Assembly (NCBI GenBank): GCA_015231405.1 | Contig: JADGBR010000001.1 | Coordinates: 155,964 to 219,963 of the forward strand | Reading direction: 5' to 3' | DNA: 64,000 nucleotides | Source of the DNA: Candidatus Omnitrophota bacterium | GTDB lineage: Bacteria; Omnitrophota; Gorgyraeia; Tantalellales; Tantalellaceae | Part shown: positions 2,065 through 37,809 of the stretch, piece by piece | How positions within the stretch are numbered: the first letter of the stretch is position 1 | Layout of the letters: every line of letters begins with the position of its first letter | Notes under the pieces: model-generated | What the model was told of the DNA's origin: nothing | Databases searched by the model: none | What the model saw: only the letters and a program-made list of their open reading frames with translations | Made by a program: the position numbers and the translations under genes

Positions 2065-2472
2065 ATGAATAAGGAAAACAAAAGAGATATTTCTATATTA
2101 TTCCTGCGGATCATGTTAGGATCTATTTTTTTCGCGCATGGAGCGCAGAAATTGTTTGGCATGTTCGGAGGTATCGGGATCGAAGGAACGACGCGGATGA
2201 TGGAGGGGCTGGGGTTTTACGCACCTGAAACCTGCGCTGTTGTATGGTCATTTATCGAGTTTTTCGGCGGGATATTTCTCGCTTTCGGGGTCTTGGCCAG
2301 ATATGCCGCCCTTTTACTATCGTTCATTATGGCAATAAGTATATTAAAAATTAATGCCTCTTACGGATTCTTTATTCAGAACGGAGGGTATGAATACAAT
2401 TTGCTGATAATTGTCTCTTGTTTGCCCGTCATTCTACTTGGTGGCGGTAAGTGGTCGTTGTGGGACGTGTAG
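2065..2472 (+). CDS. DoxX-family membrane protein
   Basis: ILFLRIMLGSIFFAHGAQKLFG motif typical of DoxX. 135 aa, about 4 TM helices. Confidence 0.7.
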   Translation: MNKENKRDISILFLRIMLGSIFFAHGAQKLFGMFGGIGIEGTTRMMEGLGFYAPETCAVVWSFIEFFGGIFLAFGVLARYAALLLSFIMAISILKINASYGFFIQNGGYEYNLLIIVSCLPVILLGGGKWSLWDV

Positions 2473-9303: not shown

Positions 9304-11898
9304 ATGAAAAGCGACAGGTTGACATTAAAAGCGCAGGAAGCGTTGAACGAAGCCATGAACCTGGCTTTAACGCTCGGGCACCAGGAGGTGGATGTTTTGC
9401 ACCTCCTTGAAGCGCTCCTTAAAGACCATGAGGGAGTCGTTCCGTTAATAGCCGAAAAGATCGGCTCTTCAAGAGAGGCGCTTTCCGGTTCATCTCAAAA
9501 AGAACTTTCCAAACTTCCTAAAGTGTACGGAGCCGGTACCGAAGCTTATTTATCCGGCCGTTTGAAATCCATTATAATGAAAGCCGAGGAAGAGGCCAAT
9601 GCCCTTGGCGATGATTATGTCGGCGTCGAGCATTTACTTATGGCGGCTTCTGACGGCGACAAGTGGCCGGGTCATGACATTTTGGCCAGGAACGGTATAA
9701 AGAAGCCCAACATACTCCGGGTATTAAAGGATATTCGGGGAGATCAAAAGATAAAGGACCAGGATCCCGAGGGTAAATACCAGGCGCTGCAAAGATACGG
9801 AAGGGATCTTGTTGAACTGGCTGACAGGGAAAAGATAGATCCCGTAATAGGCAGGGACGAAGAGATCAGGAGGCTCATACATGTCCTTTCACGGAGGACA
9901 AAGAACAATCCCGTTCTTATAGGAGAACCCGGAACGGGAAAGACGGCCGTTGTGGAAGGATTGGCCAGAAGGATATCTTCGGGCGATGTCCCCGGGAGCC
10001 TTAAGAACAAGAGGCTTATAGCGCTCGACATCGGTAGTCTCGTAGCCGGTACGAAATTCAGGGGTGAGTTCGAGGAAAGGCTGAAAGCCATTCTTAATGA
10101 GGTGCGCCGTAAAGCCGGTGAGGTCATTCTTTTTATTGATGAGCTTCATACTCTCGTCGGGGCGGGTTCGGCCGAAGGGTCCATGGACGCCTCGAATATG
10201 CTTAAACCGGCACTAGCGAGAGGGGAGCTTAAATGCATTGGGGCCACGACCCTGGATGAGTATAGGAAATACATAGAGAAAGATAAAGCTCTTGAAAGAA
10301 GGTTCCAGCAGATATTCGTAGGCGAGCCATCGGTAGAGAACACTATCGCTATACTCCGGGGACTTAAGGAGAGATACGAGGTACACCATGGAGTGAGGAT
10401 ATCCGACGAGGCTTTGATAGAGGCGGCAAAACTTTCCGACAGGTACATAACAGGAAGGTTCCTTCCTGATAAAGCCATAGACCTGATAGACGAGGCGGCT
10501 TCAAAACTTCGTATAGAGATCGATTCAATGCCCACCGAAGTCGACCAGAAGGAGAGAAGGATAAAGCAGCTGGAGATAGAGAAACAGGCGCTTCTCAAAG
10601 AACGGACAAAGCCCGAGATAATGGAGAAGCTCGATTCCCTGGAAAAAGAGCTTTTGGCCGGAAGAAGGGACCTCGAAGTCCTCCAGACACACTGGCAAAG
10701 AGAAAAGGACTTGATACAGAAGATACGCGAAGTGAAGGAAAAGATAGACCGTTCTAAAATAGATGAAGCTAACGCCGAAAAGGAAGGGGACCTGGCCGGG
10801 GTTTCCAGGATAAGGTATGGCATTCTGGTAGAGTTGGGAAAAGAGCTTGAGAAACAGACAGAAGAGCTGCGATCTTTTCAGAAATATAAAAAAATGTTGA
10901 ATGAGGAAGTTGAGGAGGAAGACATTGCAAAAATAGTCGGTGAGTGGACAGGTATCCCGGTGTCCAGACTCCTTGAAACTGAACTTGAAAAACTGGTCAA
11001 TATGGAAAAGATCATCAGGGAAAGGGTGGTAGGTCAGGATAAAGCCGTTGATTCGGTGAGTAACGCCGTAAGGCGAGCTAAAAGCGGTCTCTCGGACCCG
11101 GCAAGGCCGATGGGTTCCTTTCTTTTTCTCGGGCCTACCGGGGTAGGAAAGACCCATCTGGCGAAAACCCTCGCTTGGTTCCTGTTCAACGATGAAGAGG
11201 CCATGGTGAGGATAGATATGTCGGAATATATGGAGAAACACTCGGTGTCGCGCCTGATAGGTGCACCACCCGGTTATGTAGGATACGACGAAGGAGGACA
11301 ATTGACCGAAAAGGTCAGGAGGAGGCCTTATAGCGTGGTCCTCTTGGACGAAATTGAGAAGGCTCATCACGATGTTCTCAATATTCTCTTGCAGATACTG
11401 GAAGACGGCCGGTTGACGGACAATCAGGGGCACATAGTTAATTTCAAAAATACGATAGTGATAATGACCTCTAATATAGGAAGTCATCATTTCATGGACC
11501 CTAGCCAGACCGGTAAAGAGCTGGATGACGCCGTAACCGCCGACCTTAAGAGTGCTTTTCGTCCGGAGCTTCTGAACAGGCTGGATGACATCATCGTCTT
11601 CAACAGACTGGATGAAAAAGATATCGTTAAGGTGGCTAAGATAGAGATAGACCGTGTGAGGAGAAGACTGGCCGCGAAGGATATCGATCTCAAGGTATCG
11701 GCTAAGGCTGAAGAGGTCCTGGCAAGAAGGGGTTATAACGCTGAGCTCGGAGCGCGTCCCATGAAAAGACTTATCCGCAAAGAGGTCGAGGATAAAGCAG
11801 CTATAGCGCTCTTGAACGGAACGATAAAGGAACCCGGCACCGTAACGCTGGGATATGACATAAAAAAAGACGAACTGGTCCTGGAAACAAGGAGTTGA
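9304..11898 (+). CDS. clpB: ATP-dependent chaperone ClpB
   Basis: Clp_N repeats. Two AAA modules (GEPGTGKT; GPTGVGKT). Long coiled-coil M-domain between NBD1 motifs. Signature [25 protein letters not shown]. 864 aa. Confidence 0.95.
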
Positions 11899-23842: not shown

Positions 23843-26800
23843 ATGAAAAAATTCAACACGCTAATATTGTTGATTTCTTTTACCATCAATCAGATGGTGA
23901 TCCCCGTAAAAGCGGACGTCGCAAAGCTGATAGATCCCGGTACTTTCTACATACCCGGAAAGATCGGTGAAATAATGACTTTGGTCAAAGGGAATTCAGG
24001 AAAGACCATAATTAATATAACTGACGCGCACTGCAATTATTCTGCCCAGGACAATATCTGCAAGATACTTCAATATTTGACATCAAACGAAACCCCTGAG
24101 ATCGTCTTTCTTGAGGGGGGATCGGGCAAATATGATTTCAGCGTTTTCGATAAAATTAATGACACAGAAATTAAAGAGAGGATCGTCGAAATATTACTTA
24201 AAGAAGGAAGGCTCTCGGGCGCGGAGAAATATGGTATAGGATCCAATAACAGCATAAGGCTCGAGGGGCTTGAAGAAAAGGATCTTTATGACAAAAATCT
24301 CGGGTATTACAGAGGATCCCTGACAATGAAGGATACAGTCCAGCCTTATCTGGATAAATTAAGAGGGATCCTCGCGAAAATCAAAAAGAACCTGTATTCC
24401 GAAGAGATGATCAAGATCGATGATATGTTCGACAGGTATGAGTCAGGGGAACTTAACATAAAAGACCTTATTGTTTTGATCTCAGGTCTTTTGGCGCAAA
24501 AGAGCGCGGATCTCCTGGCGTATAAGAACATAGTCGGCCTCGCTGGGATAGTGAACGATGAGAAGAGGATTGATTTCGAAAGGGCAGAGAAAGAGATGGA
24601 AAATGTGATGGACCTTTTGACCAAAACACTTCCAGGGAACGAGAGAACAAAACTCCTTGAGCAGCTGACGGGATTTAAGGACGGCGATATCGATAAGGAA
24701 ATGTTTTACGGATATCTTTTTAAACAGCTCCGGCTGTCTTCGGCTGACATGTCCAATTACGAGAACCTAAGGAAATATTCGGAATATATATCAGGGTATG
24801 AAAACATCGATAAAGGCGAGCTTGCCAGAGAGATCCGAAGAGCCCGTACTGACCTTTTTGAAAAGTCATTTACTGGAGACGATCAGAAAGAATTATTCGC
24901 GCTAGTGAATTATCTGGTCGCCGTCGATAAGCTCATTAACGCAAAGCTCGTTAAGGAAGAATTCAATGATTATATAAAAATGGCATCAAGAGTTGACCTT
25001 GACGGGGTCAAAGCGTTCATAGCCAAAAACTATCCCATTGACGGGGATCATCTTAATATGAGCGAAGCCCAAAATGAATACCCAATGATCGTGGATCTGA
25101 TGGAAAAATTTTACAAATGCTCTTTTGAAAGGGATGTTGTATTCCTCGGCAAGATCGACAAGTATATGACCGTTAATAAAATGAAGAGCGCGGTCATGGT
25201 TACCGGAGGTTTTCATAAAGATAATCTGAAAGGCCTGTTCGAAAAAGCGGGTTTTAATTACATAGAAGTGATGCCGGTAATTAAAAAGACCGATGTGGCG
25301 AATAATTATTTTAAACTGCTTTCAGGTGAACGGTCCGATCTCGAGGGATTCATTGATACTGCCGTGTCACTCCTTCCCGGGAATTCATTCCTGGCTTTAA
25401 GGAGCGTTTTCTCCGAGATGGGGATATCCGACATAAAGGCAGGGAACGAAACTGTCCTTAAGATCGCGATGCTTGAAAAACTCCTGAACGGTGAGGAGTT
25501 CACGATAAGGACGAAGCAAGGCTGGTGGATAGTGATTTCGCCCGAAGGAGTGAAAAGCGTTAACGCAAACGTATTTAAGAGCGATACCGGAACGATAGGG
25601 GGCCAAAAGATCACCGCGGAAGTATTCAGGCCCGAAGCCAGATTCGACGCAAATGTCAGCGAGGCGGATATCGTTCTTGTGGACGGGGACGAGCTCAATC
25701 ATATTCAGCAGGAGTTGTGGATAGACGGGCTAGGAAAGGAAATGGGGTATAAGGCATTGAGAGATGTCATCGACACGGAGCCATTTATCGACAAGCTTTA
25801 TGAATTCGGCCTTGAAGAGCAGCATGTCGAATATCTTAAGCTGAATTATATTAATACCGATAAGCTAAGGGTGTGGAACGATAAGGACATGCGTATGCCT
25901 GTCGACGGTCATCCCGGAGCGGAGGGCGTTGTCTATTTGACAAGCCATCTTTTCAACGCGAATGACACCAGAGGAGCCGTACTCGCTTTCCTTCACGAAC
26001 TTGGAGGGGCTTATAAGAACGGCGAATTGAAGCGTACCCATGCAGATAATAGACAGCTTGACGACGCTTACGCCTCCGGTGACAGGGACCTCATAAAAAA
26101 GAAGGCTATTGAAATAGTCGAATTCGCTTCCGGCGGGACAGGCATGGCTCGTGGTGAAAAAAGGGATTATGCCGATAAAGTCGATATGGAGGCGGCGAAG
26201 CCGGTAACGATAGAGGACTTTGAGACCCTGACGAGCGATCACCAGAAAGAAAATGTCATAAGGGAGCTGAAAACCATACACGCTGAAATCATGTCGATGG
26301 CCGAGGAATACAAAGAGAGAACGGGTGATCCTAAATACCTGACGATAACGATGAGGGAACAGAAACGGTTCCTTAAAACATTTGAAAGCGTTTATTATAA
26401 ACGCATAAAAGAAACCGGAGACGAAAGTCTTTCGTACGCACATGCGCTTAATACGGCTAAACAGGGCTACTACGATATTTTTCCTGAAAGTTTCGTTCGA
26501 GAGGAGATCGGGGACGTTAATGTACATGACGCCCCGTTGCCTGAAGAACTGGACGCCTTGCATTCCGAGGTCTACCGAAAGCTGTCGAGGGCCATAGACA
26601 CCGATTTTCCGTCGCTTTTCAACTGTCCGGTAGACACTCTTGGAGAGCTGGACGACGCGCTCGATATCTATGTCAGGAACCACAGCGGGATAGGCAAGGT
26701 CGAAAAGGTCGTGTGCACGCCGGATACCGACAGCACGCAGTTGATAGGTTGCCTTCTGCCCGTCGATCCGAAAGACAGGAAGGGAGCGGAAAAGGTGCGG

Positions 26801-29800
26801 TTTGAGATGGGGGTTATTTACCGGATGGTGGAACATGCCAGAGACGATCCGGAACATACGCATATATTAAGATTGGACCAACTGGAGGCTTTATCCCCCA
26901 AAGTATGGGTCATATTGAACCAGTTCCTGTTAACGGACGAAATGACGGTGCCTGAAGCCGACCCGACCAAAGGAAAAGCCGTAAGGAAACTGAAACGGCC
27001 GAAAAATCTGAAGATCATAACGTCTATAAATAAGGGTCTGGATGACAGCGCGTTCTATGACAGGTTTTTAAGAAAGACCATTGACTCCCCGAGCGATGAG
27101 GTGCTGGGGGCATATATAATGAGCCATTATGGTCTTCCGGAATGGGCCGCGAAAGATATGGTCAGCCTGAAAAACAATAATGAAGCGGTAAATAACGGTC
27201 AGTTGTTCATTATCCTGGATTATATCAAAGGCAGGCTGTCGGAATCTGAAAGTAAAGGTGAAAAGGCCTTGAAGGATATCATTGACCAGGAAGTCGGCCT
27301 TTATTTAGGGAACCTTAAACCGCTTAAGCCGGGGGACGGATATGAGACCAAAGTCGAATTCAAGGACGATAAGCTCATGTTTGACGGCGTCGAGCTCGCA
27401 ATTAATGACGGGCTTAGAGCTAAGATAAAACAGGCGGTAAAAAGCCAGGACGACATCGAAGCCATTAAAAAAGCCATAAAAGAAACTGTCTCTATCAGCA
27501 TGACGAGGGACGTGGCGAGGGCCTTGAGCGCTATCGCGAGGAATTACCGCTATGGGAATAAGGTTATCCAGCTCGAGGGCCCTACCGGGTCCGGAAAGAC
27601 CTTCCTCGCGGAATCATTGGCTAAAATGCTGAATATCCCGTTTTATGGGGAACCTTTCCATGCCTCCAGTAAGCAGACAAAGCTTCTTGGGTCTTTTGTC
27701 CCGGATCCGACAGGGGAGTTCTACCTTGATACGGACACGCAGTTCCTCCGGCATATACAAGACGGTGGGGTAATAGCCTTATCCGAACTTAACGCCTGCG
27801 AAAAGGACGGGTACGCGCGATTCGGCTGGTTGATGGTCCCGTTCGCTAGCGGTGAAGATACGCTCGAACTAAACCAGTATCCTTTACCCGGAGAGGGCGG
27901 GGAAATGTTCAGGTCGGTAAAAAGGCATAAGGATTCGATGATCATCATAGACACCAACCCTTCGGACGCTTATAAGTCCAGAGCGGCCCTCCCGCCGATG
28001 CTGAACGCCTATACCCCGAAAGTATGGGTGGAGGGAAAGTATACCATGGAGGAGCTTAAAGAGATATCAGCCGACTTCATCGAAAGTAAAGAGGTAAGCG
28101 GCGATGAAAAGGGTTTCTTTACGGATGTCCTTTCCGAACTCCATTTTAAGGTCCAGGAGGAGCTCGAGAGAACAGATCCGAAGTTATCCAGAGGCCGTGA
28201 GCATATAGTAACGATGAGGGAGCTTACGCGTACGAGTAAAATGATAAGGAGCGAAAATAAGAATAAAGATAAAGGCCAGAACTATTATGACGCGGCCATG
28301 CTTTATTACGGATCGGCGTTCAAGAATGAGGCCGATAGAGAGCTGGTAAAGGGTTATATTAAAGAAATATTATCCGGGCAAGGTATAGCTGTTTCCTGCC
28401 TTAAAGAGAGGGATGACAATTATTTTCTTAGAACGTCGATCCTTAACACTAAAAACTCGACAATGCTCTCGCTTCCGGCGATGGATAACCCCTTTGATGT
28501 AATACAGGAAGCGCTCGGTGAAGAAAAGAATGTCGAGGTCGAAAAGTATAACGCCAATTATTTTACCGACGATTTCGGTCTTTTAGGAGGTTATGTGCCT
28601 AATGAAGGGAGCAAATATAACGAGGAAATGGCCTTCCGCATGGTCGACGGTATCATACTGAAGAACATAAAAAAAGCGTTGAAAGAAAAGGATAAGACTT
28701 TTATCCTGGCTTTCGAGAATTTCCATTATCTGAGGCCCAAGATGGCGGTAGCGCTTAATTCAATACTCCAGGACAGGGTATATTATTCGATAGCTAAAGA
28801 AGGCGGCGTGAAAACAAAAGAAAGGATAGAAATACCCGACAACCTGAAGTTCGTCTCCACCGCTTCTAACGAGGTCGAGTTCCAGATGTCTCTGGCGGAA
28901 CAGTCCAGGTGGGTAAGGATATTCGGTTCCGGAGATAAGTCCAGGGCTCCGCCCGAAGAAAGACAAGCGAAAGTATACGCCGACGCCGATGAATTAAGAA
29001 AAGCTTACAAAAAAGATCGTTCTCAGCTAGACCCGAATATACATCCGGAGCCGGTCACTGACGGGAAAGGGCTTCTCGTCCCGACCAAAGAAATGATGGA
29101 AGCTGAAAGCCGGATGGTTGATGCGATGGACGATGATAAAGTCATTCTCCTGGAAGGCCCCCCTGGAGGCGGAAAAACGGAATACGCTTTGGATATAGCG
29201 AACAGGCTTGGCCTAAAATCCTATCTGTATTCGGCCCACGCGAATTCCCATCTCAGGGACCTTATCGGCAGTTATGTGCAGGATAAGGACGGGAAATATG
29301 TTCTTACGGCCCGTGAAAAAGACGGCCATTTTATGGCTCCGTTCCTTGAATGTCTTAAGAACGGCGGTGTGTTCATTATAGACGAGGGCGCTATAGGAGT
29401 TAACGCCCAGGCCATTATTAGCTGGCTTACGGGTATTGCAAGAGGCGATAAAGAGATAGCCATAAACGAACATCTCGGAATGGATGAGCCGTTAAGGATC
29501 AAAAGGCATGAGAACTTTCATCTTGTCATCACCACAAATCCCGTCGAAGAAACCCCTGACAGGATGAAAATACCCATAGAGGTCCTTGAACGTTCGGAAC
29601 GCATTTGGGTGACGGATGACATTTGCAGGAAATCATATGATAGTATCACGGAATTCTTTTACGATCTTTACGCCGGAAATGACCCGAAAATGGCGGAGCA
29701 TAAGAAGAACTATACCGTTGCCGCTCTTTCAAGCCTCCATATAAAGATGAAAGAAATACTTTCCGCGCAGGGGTTCGTTAATGACCCGGACAGGCATCTT

Positions 29801-32800
29801 ATGACATTGCGCGACCTTAAGGCCTTGATCGCCGCTTTCAGTTATTATGTAAAGGCCGGAATGGATAGTAAACCCGCATTCAACGCCGCCTTTGAGCTTG
29901 TGTATCTGGCTCAATTCAGTGACTTGGTCAAAATCCAGATACTAAAGAAGCTTGAAGAAGTATTGGATGGCAACGCGAAAGACAGGATAGACTTCAATGC
30001 CGGACGCTTCGAGGACAAGCCGATGGATATGGCTGGCATGATAAAGAGAGGCCCAATGGCCCAGTCCGAACAAAAAGTTATAAAACAGATAAAAGACCTG
30101 ATCGGGATAAATAAAAATCCGCTTCTTCTACTCGAACCGGGATCAAGGGAAAAAGAGATCATATCCGCTTTTTCCGAAAAAGAAGGATATGAGCTATTCC
30201 ACTGCGATAGCCACCCGGAGATGACCAGTTTGGACCTTATCGGAGGCACGTTCCCGTTCTTTGAGGAAAAGGGCATGGAGGCGGAAAGGTTAAGTGAATT
30301 GCCTGGTTTTATCGGGAGGCATCTTGTCCGGAAAGAAGATATAGATAAACCGGGTGAAAAAAAGCTTCTTGTTATACACAATATTGACGCCCTTCATGAA
30401 AAAGTCAGGACAGTCCTAAATAATTTTCTGCTTAAAGGTTCCATCGATATCCAGGATCAAATGGGAAGGACCAGGACGATGTATCTGCCGAAAAATGTCA
30501 GGATAATGGCGGCCTGCTCGGAAAAGACGGGTGAGGAAATATCCGGGGCGTTCTGGAACAGGTTCCAGAAAATAGATGTGCCGCCGATAAGTTATATGGA
30601 GAACGGTAATTCGGAGCTGCTCGAGCTCCTTTTGTATGATTCGGGCCTGTCGGAATACGGCGCGATGGGGGAAATGGTATCCAGATATATCCAGTATCTG
30701 CACTCTTTCACTGACCGGTTGGACGCGGAGAGCGAGTGGCCTTCGGGGAAAAAGTACGCATTCACGGTAAAAGAGGCTTTGCTTCTCGGGAAATACGTGA
30801 AGATAGCGATAGACGACGCGAAAAAAGACCCAGAGGAAATAGACGTAGCTAAGGCGAAAGAGATGGTCATCAGGGAAGCTTATAACCTGTACGGGGGTAA
30901 GATAAAAGAACATCAAAGCGACCTGGATTTCTTCGAGCAGAACGTTCTTAAGATCATATTCGATCACAGGCTGGTAAAGAATTTATCGGGTACTGTCGTG
31001 AAGGAAAAAGGCGTCGTTACGGAACTGGCCGGGGTTAAATTGCCGCACGGGACAAAAGGTAAAAGGCTTGAGGATATAGATCCCGAATACAGGCTTATTC
31101 TCGTAAAAGAAATAGTCAATACGATGGCTGGCATCGTCAGGGCCTGGAGATCCGGGAAAGTGGTCTCCATGACCGGTGAAACGGGAACCGCGAAAACCAC
31201 GATGGGGGTTTTTCTTTCTCAGCTTATGTTCGGGGAAGAGGCCGGAGAGGACAGCTACTACATATTTTCGACCCACGGCGCGTCGAAAGCAAGAGACCTT
31301 GAATATCAGCTGAGGATGACCGAGGAAGGCAAGTACCGGCTGGAAATACAGGAATTCATTAAGAAGATAGAGGAAGGGAATAAGGTCATCATAATCGACG
31401 AGGCGAACATGAGGCCGGAGATGCTCTGGGCAATTAACGCCATAGCGAGGGGCGAGAAGGAGATAACGCTTCAGATCCCGGGCGAAAAACAATACAAGGT
31501 AAGGGTAGGCGACAACGTCAATATCATAATGACTATGAACCCCACAAGCTATAAAGACAGGAAAGATGTTCCCGGGATACTTAAGGAGAATGTCGTGAAC
31601 CTGTGGTCCAGCCTCAATTACTCGGAAGCCGAGATGGACATGATACTTAAGGGGATGATGGGAGCGATGGAGCGAAAACTGCTGGGTAAGAAAGGGAAAG
31701 TGTCACAGGAAGCGGAAACAAGCGAGGAGGATAAGGCAATCCCGGCAAAAGACGGCGTTTTTGAGGATTTCAGGGGGTCGATCGATCTTGAGAAATTCCT
31801 GGAAAGGGTATACGAGTTCGGACATGACGAGGCTCTCGAAAAAACGCCGCAGGAAGTGATCTCAAATTTGGAAAAAGAACTGCTTGAAAGAGATGACGTC
31901 AAGAAGCGCATGGCGAGGATCGAAACGACGGTCAAGAACCTTACACGGGGCATATCTGTCGAATATTCAACATATTATCCGTGGGGGCAGTCGAACGAGG
32001 CTGGGAAGTTACTTATTCCTCTCGATCAGCTGGTCAATCCTCTTCTTACGGACGACATGATAATCTCCTTCATAATGCACGAAATAAGGCATTGGAGATA
32101 TTCGCCGACCCCTAAAGATATTATGGGGGATATCGCGGAGGATCTTGTGAAAACTATCCCTAAAGCGAGGGAGATCCTGTCTTCGAGCGATTTTAATTAT
32201 TATTGGAATGTCCTTGAAGATCACAGGATAAACGCGGTGCGAACTCGTTTTGACGGCGAGAATTCATATATAGATACCTTTATAGGAACGAACTTTACTG
32301 ATCCCGAACAATCTCTAAAAATACAGGAAAAGCTGGAGACTTTCATAGATGGAGGAGAATACATAAGGGCTTTCTGGGAATATATACTATACTACGGATA
32401 TGCGCGGGAACATACACCCGGATTTCCAAGGTATCCGAAGGCCTTAAGGGACGCGATCAATAAAATAACGGACGGCGGGGATAATTCGGTCTTGTACAGA
32501 GCGGTATTGTCGGGCGATGTCCATCCGGACTACGATGCGCTGGTAATTGATAAGAACGCCCCTGAGAACAGGGCGAAGATGATAAAAGCCGCCATTAACA
32601 GTTTGAAGGTCATAATAGGCGAAATACATCCGGTATTTCTTGAAGTCGTTGAATATGAAAGAAAAGAGCGGGAGAAAAAGCATAAAGACAAGGATAAAGG
32701 CGAAAAAACGAAAAAAGAGGCGAAAGCACCGAAAGAAGCTAAAGAAGCGAAACAACGGCCCATAGAGGATCTTTCCGAAGGACCTCTTACCCAGGCTCCT

Positions 32801-35800
32801 TTAAGCCCGCCGCCGGGTGCGATGCCAAATAATGATAAGGGTGTTGAGACGCCCGTTGATATGCCTAAGCCCTGGGATGAAAGGCCACAAACGGATATAC
32901 CGTTAACAGGCACCTCCGGTTCCGGAGCTTCCGATGAGAAAGGCCGGGGGGAACAAGGTGAAAGTGCTCCGGGTGACGATATGTCAGGGGAAGAATATCC
33001 TTCGGGAATGGATAAGGGAGCCGGACCGGTGATGCCAGGTTCTGATGCTTTTTCCGGAAAAACCATTAACTATGATCCCGTACAATGGAAAGAGATGACT
33101 AAAGAGGAGCTCGAGAGATTGATAGAGAAAAGTAAAAGGATAAGAGGTGCTACGGAGTTACCGGAGGAATCATCTAATGATTTTCTGGCCGAGATAAGGA
33201 GGATAGTCGAAAATCCGCCTGAAACACCTCATGAGTTTGAAGGGTACAGGAAATTCTACAGGGAATTTGTAGAACAGGTTAAATATTCGCACAATATGGC
33301 TATTACGGATGAATTATTCGAATACTATGGGCATCTCATTAAAAACGCCAAGACACTCCGGGATGTTATCGACCGGCTGCCGGAAGAGATCAAAAAGCTG
33401 ATGGACGAAACACGGGAACTGTTCGAGGAGATCGAGGAGGACATCGAGCAGGAAAACAGCGAAACGGGTATGCAAATCGATATTGAGGCGAAATGGAGCA
33501 GAAAAAAAGAACAATTCATAGAAAATATTATAAAGGATAGGAAAAGATCGGATATAGCTGTAGGGGTTACGCTCGTCCCTGATATGTGGGCGAGCGGGGC
33601 ATATGAAGAGATACTTGCCGTGTTCCTTCAGACTTTCAATAAGCTGGAGAGAAGGAAGGTCGAGTACAGCGTGAGTTTTAGCGATGTCTCATATTCTTTG
33701 CGGGAAGGCATAGCGTTCAACGAAAAGGTAAAGAAAATGGAACAGCTCGAGCAAAGGTACAGAGAAATGCTTCTGTACTTGGCTTTGACCAATCACGGTA
33801 ATAATCAACAGTCTTCAAAGGTGGGTATCGGTAGATTCACGCCGCTTAAGCTGGTCCTAAGCATAATGCAGAAATATTCCGGAGTTAAAAAAACGAATAA
33901 GATCGAGTTTATCGTTACGGATGGGTCGATCGAGGAAACGTCCTGTTATATGTTCTTCCCGTCGGAAACCGGGAAAGGGTATCTGGGGAGCGACGATATC
34001 TTTCTAAGACCGAGCGGCGTTATCGGCCCGTATTACGATATGCCGGGTTGTACCAAAGACCTGGTAATGGAAGCGACAGAGGCGCTCAATTATCTGGCGA
34101 ATTATGAGCATAATTTAAGGATATGGAAGGCGTGCATACAAAGGGCGAAAGATGGCGGCATGACAGACGCGGAATTAAAAAGAAAAGGGCTGACCGAAGA
34201 TGAGTTCCCGGGATTGCACGTACTTAAAAATGATCCGGACCCAAGAAGCATGGGAGCTCGATTGGCGAAGGAATATGGCTTCAGATTCGACCAATGGGGT
34301 TATAACTGGCCCAGCGTGACGGAAAAAGTGAGCATGAGTGACAGGATAAAGGCCATAATAAGAGCCAGCGACCTTGTCACGCGCCTAAGAATGAAAGCCG
34401 GTATAATATTGCCGGCATCCGAGGAATATCTTGAAAGAGCGAGACAGGCTCCGGGCGGGGATAAGGCTAAATTCGGTATGCCTGTTCCGACCCGGAAATT
34501 AGCCGACGCTTTAAGTGACGCGAAGTCGAAAGGGATAGATATTATAGGGGTGGGAACTAAAAAGGAATACAAGGGAGTTCAGCTATTCGATTCATGGATC
34601 TATATCGACGGATATTCACCGCATGTGGTCACTTTCCTCATGCTGGAGCTGTCCAACTATAAAAAGAAACACCCGGGAGATTTTCCGAAAGGTGATCTTT
34701 TTGAGAACTTGCCGGGGTTAAGGGAAAAAGCCGATAAAATGCAAAAAGAGACGGCCAGTGCCGCTAAGATGCCCGGCATGAAAGCTCCCTCGGAAAATAG
34801 CATAGAAATGAACCTTCTTGATCTTGAGAATAACTCTGCGCCGGTACAGCATGAGGAAATACTGATCAAACGAAAGATCGAATTAGGAGGCGACGGGCGC
34901 GAGTTAAAAGTCGCATTCAGGGTGCTTGACGAAAATGTCGCTGACAAAGTCAAGAGTGTAGCTATGAGCCCGAGCAAGGCTTTCTTCGATATTGGCGGAG
35001 ATACCTTTTTTGCCGTGAGGAGAGAAATGCCGGACGGTTCCATAAATATATTTCTGACTAAAAAGTCGATGGCCAGGCTTATCGTCGACGAAAAGGCTCT
35101 CATGGCCCTTGCTATGCACGAAGTTTACGATACCGGCGAGAAGGAAGGGCCCGGTTCGCATAAATGGGCGTGGGATAAAGTCAAAAAGGAGAACCCCGAA
35201 GGTATGAGCTCTCTCCTTAGATTCATGATCGACAATATGGATGAGGCCCAAGTTAAAGCTCTTGCATCCGAATATGAAGAAGACCTTTCGGGAAGAAAAG
35301 CGTCGGGAGAGTGGGGGCCATTCGAGGAAGATATTCACTCATATTGCCTGGGAAGGCTCGATGCGATCAGGACTTCAACGGAAACGGATAAAAATTCGAT
35401 ACTTAAATATGAATTATCAGGAACATCGGAAGGCCGCCTGGAAAAAATAAGGTGTGAGTCCGGCATTGCTCCTGAAACGAATTCAACGGAGAAGGCGAGA
35501 TCCGAGATGCTGGACGTTTACGGTAAACTCCTGTCCGGAGTTTACAAGAATACGCATAATAAGGAGAAATGTTATGATTTCATATTGAGCGCTGTCCCCA
35601 CGGCAAAGGACGATGAAGGGCAACCGGTCGATTACGCCGAAAGCGTCCTATCAGGGCTCATGGGTAAATTAAGGAGCCAGGGAGACGCCGCGGTAGCAAA
35701 AGCTCAGATAGGGAATATAACGTCCAGGTATACGATGGGAGCTTTAGCGGCAAAGAGCATGGTCGAGAGTATTGTCGAGCTTTCAAAAAGCGTTCCCGAT

Positions 35801-36277
35801 GGGAGGATACACTGTTCGATCAGCGCAAAAATACTTAAGGAGCTCGAAGAGCTGAACGCAGGTGAACAATTCATTGTAGGAACTGTAAAAGACTTTTTGA
35901 CGGGACATGTGATGCTCGACATTATAACCGATACCGCTACGACGGAGAAGGAAGAGACCGTATACCCGCTTTCCTTCGCCAAGTGCAAGGCATTAGGCCT
36001 CGCCAGGTTCAACATGGCGCATGTGGGGGCGATGGTGGATAAGAACGACGACCTGTATAAAAGTTCATTAAGGCTTGTAGGCCTCGCGATCGCGTATTTG
36101 ACCAATAACACGGACAACGCGGATAATATCGTCAAATCGCTGGAGGAGGCTTCGGGAAAAGATAAAGAATTCTATAAAAGGGTTTTCGAGCTTGTGCTGC
36201 CCGAAGTGGCTAAAATAAACATAAACGAGATTAACAATATATTTCAGGCCGAAGCGGAGGTATTCGCGTCTCTCTAA
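23843..36277 (+). CDS. giant midasin-like AAA+ protein (4144 aa): signal/anchor peptide, TraB/GumN-like domain, six tandem AAA_5 modules (alternating degenerate/intact), helical HExxH region, acidic/Pro-rich disordered linker, VWA-like segment, ~700 aa unknown
   Basis: Single uninterrupted ORF. Signal-like N-terminus MKKFNTLILLISFTINQMVIPVKA. TraB/GumN motifs (IINITDAHCN about aa 57; MVTGGFHKDNLKGLFEKAGFNYIEV about aa 452). Walker A boxes GPTGSGKT (nt 27578), GPPGGGKT (nt 29168), GETGTAKT (nt 31175), each with an hhhhDE Walker B and a TNP/MNP sensor-1 (AAA_5 hallmark). Three interleaved AAA-like modules lacking Walker A (about nt 26700, 28500, 30120). HEIRH at nt 32078. K/E- then P/G/D/E-rich low-complexity at 32660-33070. 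FIVTDGSIEE (VWA TDG motif) at nt 33907. Confidence 0.85.
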   Translation: MKKFNTLILLISFTINQMVIPVKADVAKLIDPGTFYIPGKIGEIMTLVKGNSGKTIINITDAHCNYSAQDNICKILQYLTSNETPEIVFLEGGSGKYDFSVFDKINDTEIKERIVEILLKEGRLSGAEKYGIGSNNSIRLEGLEEKDLYDKNLGYYRGSLTMKDTVQPYLDKLRGILAKIKKNLYSEEMIKIDDMFDRYESGELNIKDLIVLISGLLAQKSADLLAYKNIVGLAGIVNDEKRIDFERAEKEMENVMDLLTKTLPGNERTKLLEQLTGFKDGDIDKEMFYGYLFKQLRLSSADMSNYENLRKYSEYISGYENIDKGELAREIRRARTDLFEKSFTGDDQKELFALVNYLVAVDKLINAKLVKEEFNDYIKMASRVDLDGVKAFIAKNYPIDGDHLNMSEAQNEYPMIVDLMEKFYKCSFERDVVFLGKIDKYMTVNKMKSAVMVTGGFHKDNLKGLFEKAGFNYIEVMPVIKKTDVANNYFKLLSGERSDLEGFIDTAVSLLPGNSFLALRSVFSEMGISDIKAGNETVLKIAMLEKLLNGEEFTIRTKQGWWIVISPEGVKSVNANVFKSDTGTIGGQKITAEVFRPEARFDANVSEADIVLVDGDELNHIQQELWIDGLGKEMGYKALRDVIDTEPFIDKLYEFGLEEQHVEYLKLNYINTDKLRVWNDKDMRMPVDGHPGAEGVVYLTSHLFNANDTRGAVLAFLHELGGAYKNGELKRTHADNRQLDDAYASGDRDLIKKKAIEIVEFASGGTGMARGEKRDYADKVDMEAAKPVTIEDFETLTSDHQKENVIRELKTIHAEIMSMAEEYKERTGDPKYLTITMREQKRFLKTFESVYYKRIKETGDESLSYAHALNTAKQGYYDIFPESFVREEIGDVNVHDAPLPEELDALHSEVYRKLSRAIDTDFPSLFNCPVDTLGELDDALDIYVRNHSGIGKVEKVVCTPDTDSTQLIGCLLPVDPKDRKGAEKVRFEMGVIYRMVEHARDDPEHTHILRLDQLEALSPKVWVILNQFLLTDEMTVPEADPTKGKAVRKLKRPKNLKIITSINKGLDDSAFYDRFLRKTIDSPSDEVLGAYIMSHYGLPEWAAKDMVSLKNNNEAVNNGQLFIILDYIKGRLSESESKGEKALKDIIDQEVGLYLGNLKPLKPGDGYETKVEFKDDKLMFDGVELAINDGLRAKIKQAVKSQDDIEAIKKAIKETVSISMTRDVARALSAIARNYRYGNKVIQLEGPTGSGKTFLAESLAKMLNIPFYGEPFHASSKQTKLLGSFVPDPTGEFYLDTDTQFLRHIQDGGVIALSELNACEKDGYARFGWLMVPFASGEDTLELNQYPLPGEGGEMFRSVKRHKDSMIIIDTNPSDAYKSRAALPPMLNAYTPKVWVEGKYTMEELKEISADFIESKEVSGDEKGFFTDVLSELHFKVQEELERTDPKLSRGREHIVTMRELTRTSKMIRSENKNKDKGQNYYDAAMLYYGSAFKNEADRELVKGYIKEILSGQGIAVSCLKERDDNYFLRTSILNTKNSTMLSLPAMDNPFDVIQEALGEEKNVEVEKYNANYFTDDFGLLGGYVPNEGSKYNEEMAFRMVDGIILKNIKKALKEKDKTFILAFENFHYLRPKMAVALNSILQDRVYYSIAKEGGVKTKERIEIPDNLKFVSTASNEVEFQMSLAEQSRWVRIFGSGDKSRAPPEERQAKVYADADELRKAYKKDRSQLDPNIHPEPVTDGKGLLVPTKEMMEAESRMVDAMDDDKVILLEGPPGGGKTEYALDIANRLGLKSYLYSAHANSHLRDLIGSYVQDKDGKYVLTAREKDGHFMAPFLECLKNGGVFIIDEGAIGVNAQAIISWLTGIARGDKEIAINEHLGMDEPLRIKRHENFHLVITTNPVEETPDRMKIPIEVLERSERIWVTDDICRKSYDSITEFFYDLYAGNDPKMAEHKKNYTVAALSSLHIKMKEILSAQGFVNDPDRHLMTLRDLKALIAAFSYYVKAGMDSKPAFNAAFELVYLAQFSDLVKIQILKKLEEVLDGNAKDRIDFNAGRFEDKPMDMAGMIKRGPMAQSEQKVIKQIKDLIGINKNPLLLLEPGSREKEIISAFSEKEGYELFHCDSHPEMTSLDLIGGTFPFFEEKGMEAERLSELPGFIGRHLVRKEDIDKPGEKKLLVIHNIDALHEKVRTVLNNFLLKGSIDIQDQMGRTRTMYLPKNVRIMAACSEKTGEEISGAFWNRFQKIDVPPISYMENGNSELLELLLYDSGLSEYGAMGEMVSRYIQYLHSFTDRLDAESEWPSGKKYAFTVKEALLLGKYVKIAIDDAKKDPEEIDVAKAKEMVIREAYNLYGGKIKEHQSDLDFFEQNVLKIIFDHRLVKNLSGTVVKEKGVVTELAGVKLPHGTKGKRLEDIDPEYRLILVKEIVNTMAGIVRAWRSGKVVSMTGETGTAKTTMGVFLSQLMFGEEAGEDSYYIFSTHGASKARDLEYQLRMTEEGKYRLEIQEFIKKIEEGNKVIIIDEANMRPEMLWAINAIARGEKEITLQIPGEKQYKVRVGDNVNIIMTMNPTSYKDRKDVPGILKENVVNLWSSLNYSEAEMDMILKGMMGAMERKLLGKKGKVSQEAETSEEDKAIPAKDGVFEDFRGSIDLEKFLERVYEFGHDEALEKTPQEVISNLEKELLERDDVKKRMARIETTVKNLTRGISVEYSTYYPWGQSNEAGKLLIPLDQLVNPLLTDDMIISFIMHEIRHWRYSPTPKDIMGDIAEDLVKTIPKAREILSSSDFNYYWNVLEDHRINAVRTRFDGENSYIDTFIGTNFTDPEQSLKIQEKLETFIDGGEYIRAFWEYILYYGYAREHTPGFPRYPKALRDAINKITDGGDNSVLYRAVLSGDVHPDYDALVIDKNAPENRAKMIKAAINSLKVIIGEIHPVFLEVVEYERKEREKKHKDKDKGEKTKKEAKAPKEAKEAKQRPIEDLSEGPLTQAPLSPPPGAMPNNDKGVETPVDMPKPWDERPQTDIPLTGTSGSGASDEKGRGEQGESAPGDDMSGEEYPSGMDKGAGPVMPGSDAFSGKTINYDPVQWKEMTKEELERLIEKSKRIRGATELPEESSNDFLAEIRRIVENPPETPHEFEGYRKFYREFVEQVKYSHNMAITDELFEYYGHLIKNAKTLRDVIDRLPEEIKKLMDETRELFEEIEEDIEQENSETGMQIDIEAKWSRKKEQFIENIIKDRKRSDIAVGVTLVPDMWASGAYEEILAVFLQTFNKLERRKVEYSVSFSDVSYSLREGIAFNEKVKKMEQLEQRYREMLLYLALTNHGNNQQSSKVGIGRFTPLKLVLSIMQKYSGVKKTNKIEFIVTDGSIEETSCYMFFPSETGKGYLGSDDIFLRPSGVIGPYYDMPGCTKDLVMEATEALNYLANYEHNLRIWKACIQRAKDGGMTDAELKRKGLTEDEFPGLHVLKNDPDPRSMGARLAKEYGFRFDQWGYNWPSVTEKVSMSDRIKAIIRASDLVTRLRMKAGIILPASEEYLERARQAPGGDKAKFGMPVPTRKLADALSDAKSKGIDIIGVGTKKEYKGVQLFDSWIYIDGYSPHVVTFLMLELSNYKKKHPGDFPKGDLFENLPGLREKADKMQKETASAAKMPGMKAPSENSIEMNLLDLENNSAPVQHEEILIKRKIELGGDGRELKVAFRVLDENVADKVKSVAMSPSKAFFDIGGDTFFAVRREMPDGSINIFLTKKSMARLIVDEKALMALAMHEVYDTGEKEGPGSHKWAWDKVKKENPEGMSSLLRFMIDNMDEAQVKALASEYEEDLSGRKASGEWGPFEEDIHSYCLGRLDAIRTSTETDKNSILKYELSGTSEGRLEKIRCESGIAPETNSTEKARSEMLDVYGKLLSGVYKNTHNKEKCYDFILSAVPTAKDDEGQPVDYAESVLSGLMGKLRSQGDAAVAKAQIGNITSRYTMGALAAKSMVESIVELSKSVPDGRIHCSISAKILKELEELNAGEQFIVGTVKDFLTGHVMLDIITDTATTEKEETVYPLSFAKCKALGLARFNMAHVGAMVDKNDDLYKSSLRLVGLAIAYLTNNTDNADNIVKSLEEASGKDKEFYKRVFELVLPEVAKININEINNIFQAEAEVFASL

Positions 36278-37809
36278 CCCCAGAGGTTGCGGTCCAGGCA
36301 CCTGTATCCTATCGCTTCGGAAACGTTATGCGTGTTGATGACCTCCGAGCCTTCCATGTCGGCTATCGTTCGTGATAATTTCAGTATCTTGTCGTAAGCC
36401 CTGGCCGAAAGACCCATTTCAAGTATTACCGTTTTCAGGATATATTCCGCTTCTTTTGAGAGAACCGAGTGCTTGTCGAGCTCTTTCGGTGACATGTAAG
36501 CGTTGATAGCGAGGTGGCAGCTTTTTTCCGCGAACCGCTCTCGTTGTATAGCCCTCGCCTTAAGCACTCTTTGTTTAACTCGTGAAGTCGTTTCGCCCGA
36601 GCGTTTTCCTGAAAGTTGTTCGTAGTTGAGCCTTGGGACTTCCAGGTGTATATCAATGCGGTCAAGTAATGGGCCGGATATTTTAGACAGATATTTCTGT
36701 ATCTGTCCGGGATTACACCTGCACTCCTTTTTCGGGTCAGTTAGGTTCCCGCACGGGCAGGGGTTCATAGCGGCAATTAGTATGAACCTGGAGGGGTATT
36801 TGATCGAGCGTTCGGCCCGTGATATGGAGATCTCGCCTGATTCAAGGGGTTGTCTTAGCGTTTCGATGACGTCGCGCCTGTATTCCGGAAATTCGTCAAG
36901 GAATAGGACTCCGTTGTGGGCGAGGCTTATCTCCCCGGGGCGTGTATGAACCCCTCCTCCGGCCATGGCGGCATAAGAGATCGTGTGATGCGGGGCCCTA
37001 AAGGGGCGTTCGTCGACGAGGTCCTCATTCTTGAGTTCGCCCGCGATACTGTATATCTTCGTCGTTTCAAGCGACTCTTCATATGAGAGGTCCGGAAGCA
37101 GATAAGGGAACCTTTTCGCTAGCATGCTTTTACCAGAACCCGGCGGGCCAATTAAAAGGATGTTGTGGTTGCCCGAGGCGGCAATCTCAAGCCCTCTTTT
37201 TACGTGTTCCTGTCCTTTAACGTCTGAAAGGTCCCACAAATCTGACGGATTCTTCAGGGATGATATATTTTGGCGGGGTTTGACGGGTTCCATCGGTTCC
37301 GCGCCTGTCACATGCCTGATTATCTCATCAAGGGAACGGGCGCCGAAGATGATCATCCCATCGACATGTGAAGCTTCCCGGGAGTTAGAGACCGGCAGAA
37401 TAAAAGTAGGGAACCGGTTTTTTAGGGATATTGCCAGCGGAAGAGCGCCTTTAAAGGAACAAAGTTTACCCGTGAGCGACAGTTCCCCGCAAAAAAGGAT
37501 GTTATCCATTAGAGTCCCGTCGATCTGTTCCGAAGCGGCCAGTATTCCCAGAGCTATTGGGAGATCGAAACCGGAGCCTTCTTTTTTCATTCCTGCAGGA
37601 GCAAGATTGATAGTTATTTTTTTAGCCGGAAAAGAAAAACCCGAATTTCTGATAGCGGATCTTATCCTGGCGCGGCTTTCCTTAATAGAGCTGTCAGGGA
37701 GCCCAATTATTGAAAAGGAGGGAAGCCCCGAAGCCGTTACATCCGTTTCGACTGTTACCTGCTGTGATTCCATTCCTATCATGCAACCCGAATTGACTTT
37801 AGATATCAT
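36274..37809 (-). CDS. comM: Mg-chelatase-like AAA+ ATPase ComM/YifB family
   Basis: N-terminal Lon-protease-like/ChlI domain (GLPDSSIKESRARIRSAI, GSGFDLPIALGILAAS). AAA+ with Walker A GPPGSGKS. C-terminal Mg_chelatase_C. Convergent 4-bp overlap with the giant gene. Confidence 0.85.
   Translation of the reverse strand: MISKVNSGCMIGMESQQVTVETDVTASGLPSFSIIGLPDSSIKESRARIRSAIRNSGFSFPAKKITINLAPAGMKKEGSGFDLPIALGILAASEQIDGTLMDNILFCGELSLTGKLCSFKGALPLAISLKNRFPTFILPVSNSREASHVDGMIIFGARSLDEIIRHVTGAEPMEPVKPRQNISSLKNPSDLWDLSDVKGQEHVKRGLEIAASGNHNILLIGPPGSGKSMLAKRFPYLLPDLSYEESLETTKIYSIAGELKNEDLVDERPFRAPHHTISYAAMAGGGVHTRPGEISLAHNGVLFLDEFPEYRRDVIETLRQPLESGEISISRAERSIKYPSRFILIAAMNPCPCGNLTDPKKECRCNPGQIQKYLSKISGPLLDRIDIHLEVPRLNYEQLSGKRSGETTSRVKQRVLKARAIQRERFAEKSCHLAINAYMSPKELDKHSVLSKEAEYILKTVILEMGLSARAYDKILKLSRTIADMEGSEVINTHNVSEAIGYRCLDRNLWG

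Follow-up and report, generated by a model that had tools for sequence, protein, structure and literature searches.

The stretch of DNA analysed here, referred to below as the window, comprises 64,000 nucleotides (nt) of contig JADGBR010000001.1 (positions 155,964 to 219,963 of the forward strand) in the Candidatus Omnitrophota assembly GCA_015231405.1. Its sole giant open reading frame (ORF) encodes a protein of 4144 amino acids (aa) that is identical to MBF0215528.1, an 'AAA family ATPase' in GenBank from a 491-kb contig of a metagenome-assembled Candidatus Omnitrophota genome, and a singleton when proteins are clustered at 90% identity. An original prediction had pointed to an HExxH motif, a low-complexity linker and a domain like von Willebrand factor A (VWA) in the tail of this protein. 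Our analysis indicates that about 1,000 residues of the tail, aa 2647-3640, on balance probably constitute a CobT-like adaptor that is fused C-terminally to a single-chain ring of six AAA+ modules of the MoxR class. The features on which this is based are the following, all on the plus strand:

23843..36277, plus strand: the giant ORF, 4144 aa
26660..31762, plus strand: six modules of AAA_5/MoxR type in three pairs, each of a degenerate and a P-loop module (Pfam, self-comparison)
31781..32680, plus strand: HExxH domain, aa 2647-2946 (AlphaFold2 (AF2) model, Foldseek, alignment)
32078-32092, plus strand: HEIRH, aa 2746-2750, with H, E and H invariant in 14 family sequences
32204..32233, plus strand: WNVLEDHRIN (WN..ED.RID in the family consensus), three helices after the HExxH helix
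32219-32221, plus strand: D2793, candidate third metal ligand
32636..33049, plus strand: low-complexity linker, aa 2932-3069 (composition scan)
33056..33427, plus strand: helical N-terminal extension of the VWA domain, aa 3072-3195 (AF2 helices 2-47, family alignment)
33428..33553, plus strand: segment of about 42 aa just before strand beta1, aa 3196-3237 (conservation; putative shaft or finger)
33554..33925, plus strand: N-terminal half of the VWA domain, beta1 to beta4, aa 3238-3361, ending in FIVTDG
[quoted passage not shown]
33926..34483, plus strand: insertion of 186 aa in the beta4-alpha5 loop, aa 3362-3547, without counterpart in ten orthologues
34484..34762, plus strand: C-terminal half of the VWA domain, aa 3548-3640 (a helix, GIDIIGVG as beta5, beta6 and the last helix; ends in FPKGDL)
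34910..36274, plus strand: C-terminal module, aa 3690-4144, outside the CobT-like unit

The family to which the protein belongs is very small. An exhaustive phmmer search of 1.84 billion representative proteins returned 21 proteins, 10 of them with the HExxH domain, a genome scan added three loci, and a metagenome scan with the family alignment two. The family amounts to about a dozen singleton clusters among 1.8 billion representatives, all from uncultured bacteria and annotated just as 'AAA family ATPase' or 'MoxR-like ATPase', and the window protein is their most divergent member, matching about 40-50% of the consensus positions. A word-indexed homologue search returned nothing with the tail, with the HExxH-domain alignment or with AAA module 4, a tblastn search of phage genomes with an orthologue tail gave no match, and PADLOC gave generic P-loop matches only. 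The family tolerates very large insertions, i.e., stretches resembling WD40 repeats in P0002 (a partial sequence; N-terminus) and in P0007 and P0010 (apparently between AAA modules), about 1,400 aa of helical repeats inserted in P0009, and about 1,500 aa between the HExxH motif and the VWA domain of P0016; none of these occurs in the window protein.

The HEIRH motif lies at nt 32078-32092, exactly where it had been placed. Two HExxH motifs occur in the giant protein where about 0.11 would be expected by chance at the same composition. The second, HENFH at aa 1889, is attributed to chance for want of conservation, the orthologues having HKHFH, NPHFH or HPDFH instead. In an alignment of 11 sequences with 21-29% identity to the window protein, six columns are invariant and H, E and H of HEIRH make up three of these; the same residues are found in three more loci, whose sources are Omnitrophota and Auribacterota genomes as well as metagenomes. 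Nowhere in the tail is conservation higher than in the 40 residues that surround HEIRH.

The AF2 model of the HExxH domain (300 aa, predicted with the family alignment) is confident, with a predicted local distance difference test (pLDDT) score of 91.4 and a predicted template modelling score of 0.85. It consists of connector helices, a backing helix (38-54 in the numbering of the model), three short strands (59-62, 69-70, and 76-79) and the HExxH helix (91-107), which carries H100-E101-x-x-H104, followed by at least eight helices in an all-helical bundle that ends in one long helix. The motif thus indeed sits on a helix in a helical region after the last AAA module, and the gluzincin layout, in which a backing helix and a small beta-sheet come before the HExxH helix, is present in the model. 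When the model was compared with the PDB using Foldseek, the seven best matches were all minigluzincins (selecase, projannalysin, and proabylysin; probability 0.54-0.92), and BlaR1, ZMPSTE24, ERAP2 and ArdC, all HExxH zincins, were among the top 26. The zincin-like fold that the original prediction proposed to check is, therefore, supported at the level of the fold, by the pLDDT and by the nature of the best matches, but the statistics are weak, with every E-value at or above 0.46. Against the predicted viral structures of BFVD, Foldseek gave matches with a probability of 1.0 over 268-310 columns (E-values from 5e-3) to phage entries of 517-699 aa named 'VWFA domain containing' and 'Cobalamin biosynthesis protein', as well as to a 'Metallopeptidase domain containing protein'. 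As judged from these models, the domain bears a weak likeness to minimal zinc peptidases and is matched more convincingly by the N-domains of phage CobT-like VWA proteins.

That likeness to CobT raises the question whether the domain is catalytic at all. The N-domain of CobT has been reported to be M48C-like and to contact the small domain of CobS as well as CobN, with zinc and HExxH unmentioned (July 2026 preprint on cobaltochelatase CobSTN), and MoxR-VWA systems of known function are chaperone-like or metal-insertion machines. By analogy the HExxH domain might be a non-catalytic docking domain that binds the AAA+ lid and the client, so that the tail would serve as an adaptor alone and the whole would be a remodeller and not a protease, with HExxH kept merely for a structural metal or for the stability of the fold. 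The family also has no invariant third ligand, since neither E nor D nor the final D of WN..ED.RID is kept by every member. We consider this explanation rather unlikely: H, E and H account for half of the invariant columns at 21-29% identity, an invariant Glu is a requirement of catalysis rather than of simple docking, and D2793 is kept in all members of the family but one.

The tract that follows the HExxH domain, aa 2932-3069, is the only stretch of the protein with 12.5% or less hydrophobic residues per 40 aa. Its first half is rich in Lys and Glu, has a net charge of +1 and continues the last long helix of the HExxH domain, and its second half is rich in Gly, Pro, Asp, Glu and Ser with a net charge of -10. 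It had been described as an acidic, Pro-rich linker of about 140 aa analogous to the D/E-rich linker of midasin. The peptide, its place and its richness in Pro (12.3% vs 3.8% for the whole protein, a threefold enrichment) hold, but 'acidic' was overstated, since Asp and Glu together amount to 21.7% (16.6% protein-wide) and 30 acidic residues stand beside 22 basic ones. The analogy with midasin was also drawn too strongly, the tract being Pro/Gly-rich and hydrophobic-poor rather than D/E-rich. Its place and its overall make-up are, nevertheless, conserved, a hydrophobic-poor, low-complexity tract being found there in all eight orthologues that have both flanking domains. These tracts are about 50-175 residues long, are rich in Gly, Pro, Glu, Gln, Ser and Lys, have net charges from +3 to about -23 and are unrelated in sequence; one is a repeat of PGEPK. 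In another orthologue the distance between the HExxH motif and the MIDAS site amounts to 1,516 residues. An origin of the linker from tandem DNA repeats is not supported, the only array being one of 39 nt (AAAGAAGCG, 9-nt unit) in the Lys/Glu-rich part. Within the otherwise unrelated linkers of P0002, P0003, P0004, P0006, P0007 and P0009 a short motif, [VI]P.F..L[ST].E[EQ][LM]Q.[LI][LI]..[LI], recurs that is weak or absent in the window protein and may serve in docking.

The assignment of a VWA-like fold to the region beyond the linker is correct, with support from Pfam searches with the orthologues, from a profile search of the PDB and from Foldseek. Pfam VWA (PF00092) matches 6 of the 10 family members (best E-value 2e-11), and the family profile matches the integrin alpha-M I-domain (2e-3) with DxSGS and TDG aligned to its D-G-S-G-S and TDGE. 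In the orthologues the domain after the linker is a textbook case, VTVD[x][ST]GSM ... ELVLTDG ... GIEIIGIGF. In the AF2 model of the window protein the core strands and helices are confident, and the best Foldseek match of this model in the PDB is NorD in the NorQD complex (9qhe_G, 7.9e-5), followed by complement factor B/C2; Rea1 MIDAS (6qt8, 5.4e-3), MDN1 MIDAS (8ql1), vWF A1 and integrin I-domains are matched as well. FIVTDG was found at aa 3356-3361 (nt 33908-33925), as the original prediction had it, and its TDG is invariant in the family, including the window protein (D3360). However, the end assigned to the domain at nt 33950 cuts it in half. Because 186 residues are inserted directly after TDG, the VWA domain ends near aa 3640 and reaches to about nt 34762, some 800 nt further, with the GIDIIGVG strand and the last helix at aa 3564-3640. 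The position of the MIDAS Thr in the alpha3-alpha4 loop is occupied by I or T in the family; in the window protein (VGIGRFT) its assignment is uncertain. Just before beta1 lies a strongly conserved segment with the family consensus PEEPD.EES.TG..IN..RY..R..EPFD.EV..LGK, which, in position and length, would correspond to the 'shaft' of CobT and the 'finger' of NorD that enter the AAA+ pore.

The MIDAS of the window protein is non-canonical, as had been recognized from its PDMWAS sequence (aa 3246-3251, nt 33578-33595), in which Trp replaces the first Ser/Thr. This degeneracy is specific to the window protein, D-x-[ST]-x-S being kept in 10 of 10 distinct orthologues, and it is not a frameshift artefact, because both other reading frames contain stops at the loop. 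The insertion of 186 aa has a pLDDT below 50 over most of its length in the AF2 model, and neither Pfam nor a PDB sequence search detects a family for it. Taken together with the position of the window protein as the most divergent member, this might suggest that the VWA domain here is a decaying relic without ligand binding and the insertion neutral filler. Such decay seems very unlikely to us. The frame is open over 4,144 codons; D3247, S3251, TDG and the core strands have been retained; and both ends of the insertion are conserved in an independent locus, L004, on an unrelated metagenome contig (31% identity, E = 1e-43). The beta4-alpha5 loop of VWA domains lies on the MIDAS face. With an insertion at this place, the ligand face seems to have been remade and not just lost, and since the Ser-to-Trp change disables the metal site next to it, client binding would probably be independent of metal and made by the insertion.

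L004 (ENA ERZ4223863 NODE_18914, 1-1942) is a free-standing ORF of 290-375 aa that adjoins an ABC-2 permease gene. Its match is limited to beta4, the insertion and the C-terminal half of the window VWA domain, TPSHNG replaces TDG, and at its C-terminus stands a tail reading GGIDL...PVI.N..P. The ORF might represent a fragment of a gene, a relic or a module in its own right. Close relatives of the VWA domain of the window protein were not found in the metagenome scan.

Upstream of the tail Pfam finds AAA_5, a dynein/MoxR-related subfamily, several times, and self-comparison resolves six modules of two alternating classes, three without and three with a P-loop:

about aa 952-1108, 1565-1673 and 2125-2280, plus strand: degenerate modules, no P-loop
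aa 1239-1461, plus strand: P-loop module 1, Walker A GPTGSGKT, Walker B SE
aa 1765-1992, plus strand: P-loop module 2, Walker A GPPGGGKT, Walker B DE
aa 2420-2601, plus strand: P-loop module 3, Walker A GETGTAKT, Walker B DE

Judged from its motifs, the first P-loop module (window 27578-27793) probably binds ATP without hydrolysing it, because its Walker B reads SE and not DE despite a canonical Walker A. In GETGTAKT of the last P-loop module (window 31175-31198) Ala replaces the usual Gly before Lys, a change that is kept in orthologues. Among PDB sequences, the AAA region is best matched by midasin (3.3e-12, the sum of weak stretches), and NorQ follows with 6.9e-5.

With this match, with Rea1 and MDN1 MIDAS among the structural matches of the VWA domain, and with a layout that agrees (six AAA modules per chain, a linker, and a C-terminal VWA domain), one could suppose that the tail is a true homologue of that of midasin (Rea1/MDN1) and the protein a bacterial midasin. 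We regard this as highly improbable. The midasin match contains no individually significant stretch, NorD beats Rea1 as a match of the VWA domain, the linker is not D/E-rich, and no Pfam or Foldseek match points to a midasin-type linker domain in the tail. Furthermore, the threefold repetition of a degenerate-plus-active pair suggests an independent triplication, with an origin separate from that of midasin, and the origin of six tandem AAA+ domains was placed within the eukaryotes by a 2012 analysis (PMC3495828).

Beyond the VWA domain the window protein ends in a module with the motif HE.[LF]D.G...G[ST]H..AW..VK, here HEVYD (nt 35117-35131), which is common to internal or terminal parts of other large proteins returned by the phmmer search, namely P0008, P0011-14, P0018 and P0020 (25-43% identity). 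A degenerate look-alike, LHELGG...THADN, occurs near the N-terminus (aa 717-740, nt 25991-26062). Kinship of the C-terminal module with the HExxH domain was considered and rejected, as hhalign aligned only 11 columns (probability 0.6). In P0002, P0003, P0004, P0009 and L004 the VWA domain is followed by a conserved C-terminal tail of about 60 aa, GGIDL[TN]...F.P.I.NI.P, which the window protein lacks, having the HE..D module in its place. At the other end of the protein, a single hydrophobic segment (aa 4-22, window 23852-23908) resembles a Sec signal peptide or anchor; P0007 and P0009, the two other full-length family members, also have such a segment, and there are no further transmembrane segments. 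The neighbouring genes (20 ORFs scanned) are ordinary chromosomal ones, LonC-like, ClpB, PGI, Dus, LigA, PolX, LysS and HD-GYP regulators. A YifB/ComM-like gene (window 36274-37809, minus strand) is convergent with the giant ORF and overlaps its stop codon by 4 nt; its product has ChlI, Mg_chelatase and Mg_chelatase_C domains and belongs to the Mg-chelatase family, in the same broad AAA+ clade as the giant ORF. Three more genes for AAA+ protein quality control, coding for a LonC-like protease, ClpB and a ClpC-like protein, are located within the same 64 kb (window 5947-8403, 9304-11898, and 55517-57961).

With the domains of the tail identified, their order and conservation established in the family and the MIDAS of the window protein found to be degenerate, a mechanism may be proposed by analogy with CobST, NorQD and Rea1. 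The adaptor would consist of a zincin-like (M48/minigluzincin-type) domain with an invariant HExxH, a flexible hydrophobic-poor linker of about 140 residues, and a VWA domain with helices and some 40 conserved residues in front of it. Via the linker the VWA domain would fold back onto the ring, and the pre-beta1 segment, like the CobT shaft and the NorD finger, would enter the central pore. ATP-driven steps would then turn the VWA domain relative to the zincin domain held beside AAA6, and a client clamped between the ligand face of the VWA domain and the zincin domain would be strained and possibly cut at the HExxH site.

Several points weigh against this interpretation. Docking in the pore, the clamping of a client and peptidase activity are all inferred, and for the third metal ligand there is only a candidate, D2793 in the WN..ED.RID helix being the best. 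The matches of the HExxH domain in the PDB are not significant (E-values 0.46-4, TM-scores 0.16-0.19 when normalised by the query), and those in BFVD have modest TM-scores of 0.34-0.41. Neither the HExxH domain nor the whole tail matched any family in Pfam, NCBIfam or PHROGs, and searches of PDB sequences with the tail and with the HExxH profile gave nothing relevant; what connects the tail with CobT and with zincins is, therefore, its fold and architecture and not its sequence. No CobT model matched in Pfam and NCBIfam scans of the family members, and no sequence link to CobT or M48 was obtained. The VWA domain of the window protein itself has no Pfam VWA match at E-values up to 0.01, and the mean pLDDT of its model is only 63.7, a value that is due to the insertion. 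Also, the 20 neighbouring ORFs scanned, which are housekeeping genes, include neither CobN nor cobalamin genes. Finally, the N-terminus looks like a signal peptide or anchor, which is unexpected for an ATP-dependent machine; were the protein exported, its use of ATP would be difficult to explain.

More tentatively, and with a likelihood that we judge to be low, Omnitrophota and Auribacterota may possess rare, as yet undescribed single-chain hexa-AAA+ machines with a fused CobT-type adaptor that has a working HExxH peptidase site. If this were true, they would be ATP-driven, tethered proteases or remodellers of a new kind and the structural counterparts, among bacteria, of midasin, and it would suggest that the N-domain of CobT descended from an active peptidase. 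The intact catalytic motif hints, in a way that can be tested, that in adaptors of CobT type the M48C-like domain once was, or sometimes still is, a peptidase. Six AAA+ modules per chain are regarded as a eukaryotic invention, as in dynein and midasin (PMC3495828), and are here found in a bacterial lineage; our literature searches retrieved no description of bacterial single-chain hexa-AAA proteins of MoxR type with a fused adaptor, nor, for Omnitrophota, of a midasin-like or hexa-AAA protein of such a kind. MoxR-class ATPases normally use a separate VWA adaptor (CobS-CobT, NorQ-NorD, and CbbQ-CbbO), whereas here the adaptor is part of the same chain, which makes the family a natural single-polypeptide model of how such motors act on their adaptor. 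The window protein would be a natural variant within it, with an inserted domain in place of the VWA metal site.

Among known systems, minigluzincins (selecase, projannalysin, and proabylysin) and members of M48/M56 (ZMPSTE24 and BlaR1) have the same backing helix, small sheet, HExxH helix and further helices as the HExxH domain, but the latter adds a helical bundle of about 150 aa, shows no sequence similarity to them and matches them non-significantly. Minigluzincins were reportedly put forward by Lopez-Pelegrin and co-workers in 2013 as minimal models of the catalytic domains of M48/M56. Midasin (Rea1/MDN1) likewise combines six AAA modules per chain with a flexible low-complexity tract of considerable length, and its C-terminal MIDAS/VWA domain docks on the ring. 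Part of it is strongly D/E-rich, and it has, to our knowledge, no HExxH or zincin domain. It is, however, a eukaryotic protein with a functional MIDAS, whereas the bacterial protein described here has a degenerate MIDAS and a linker that is not strongly D/E-rich. The linker of midasin is described in PMC11603028 as structured and about 1,700 aa long.

NorD/NorQ, and also CbbO/CbbQ, combine a MoxR-class ATPase with a VWA partner, and the VWA domain described here finds its best structural match in NorD. The finger of NorD, according to PMC13036017, sits in the pore of NorQ and is turned by ATP-driven steps of the subunits while the linker is stretched. NorD is, however, a separate protein, and the portions of the NorD literature considered here describe no zincin fold for its N-terminal domain.

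The agreement is greatest with CobT, the adaptor subunit of the aerobic cobaltochelatase. According to a preprint of July 2026 on CobSTN, its N-domain has one helix, a three-stranded sheet and eight helices and resembles the peptidase domain of M48C; about 90 aa of disordered linker come next, and then a VWA domain with two helices and a 'shaft' in front of it. The shaft (Q373-D414) inserts into the CobS ring and immediately precedes the VWA domain, whose MIDAS starts from D422, and CobN is held between both domains of CobT, the N-domain of which contacts the CobS small domain and CobN (same preprint). The tail described here has the same order and sizes of parts (an M48C/zincin-like N-domain, some 90-140 aa of disordered linker, helices, and about 40 aa that lead into a VWA domain), would likewise work with an AAA+ hexamer of clade 7 (MoxR/CobS-type), and has phage CobT-like 'VWFA domain' proteins as the best structural matches of its HExxH domain. 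It differs in that CobT is a separate subunit and the adaptor here is fused in one chain with six AAA modules, and in that HExxH is invariant here and none has been reported for the N-domain of CobT; the degenerate MIDAS and the insertion of 186 aa further set the window protein apart. In its action the tail would be like a CobT or NorD adaptor, and in its looks it is like a midasin tail on a smaller scale. Although not a member of CobT by sequence or genomic context, the tail finds its closest architectural match in the CobT adaptor rather than in the tail of midasin.

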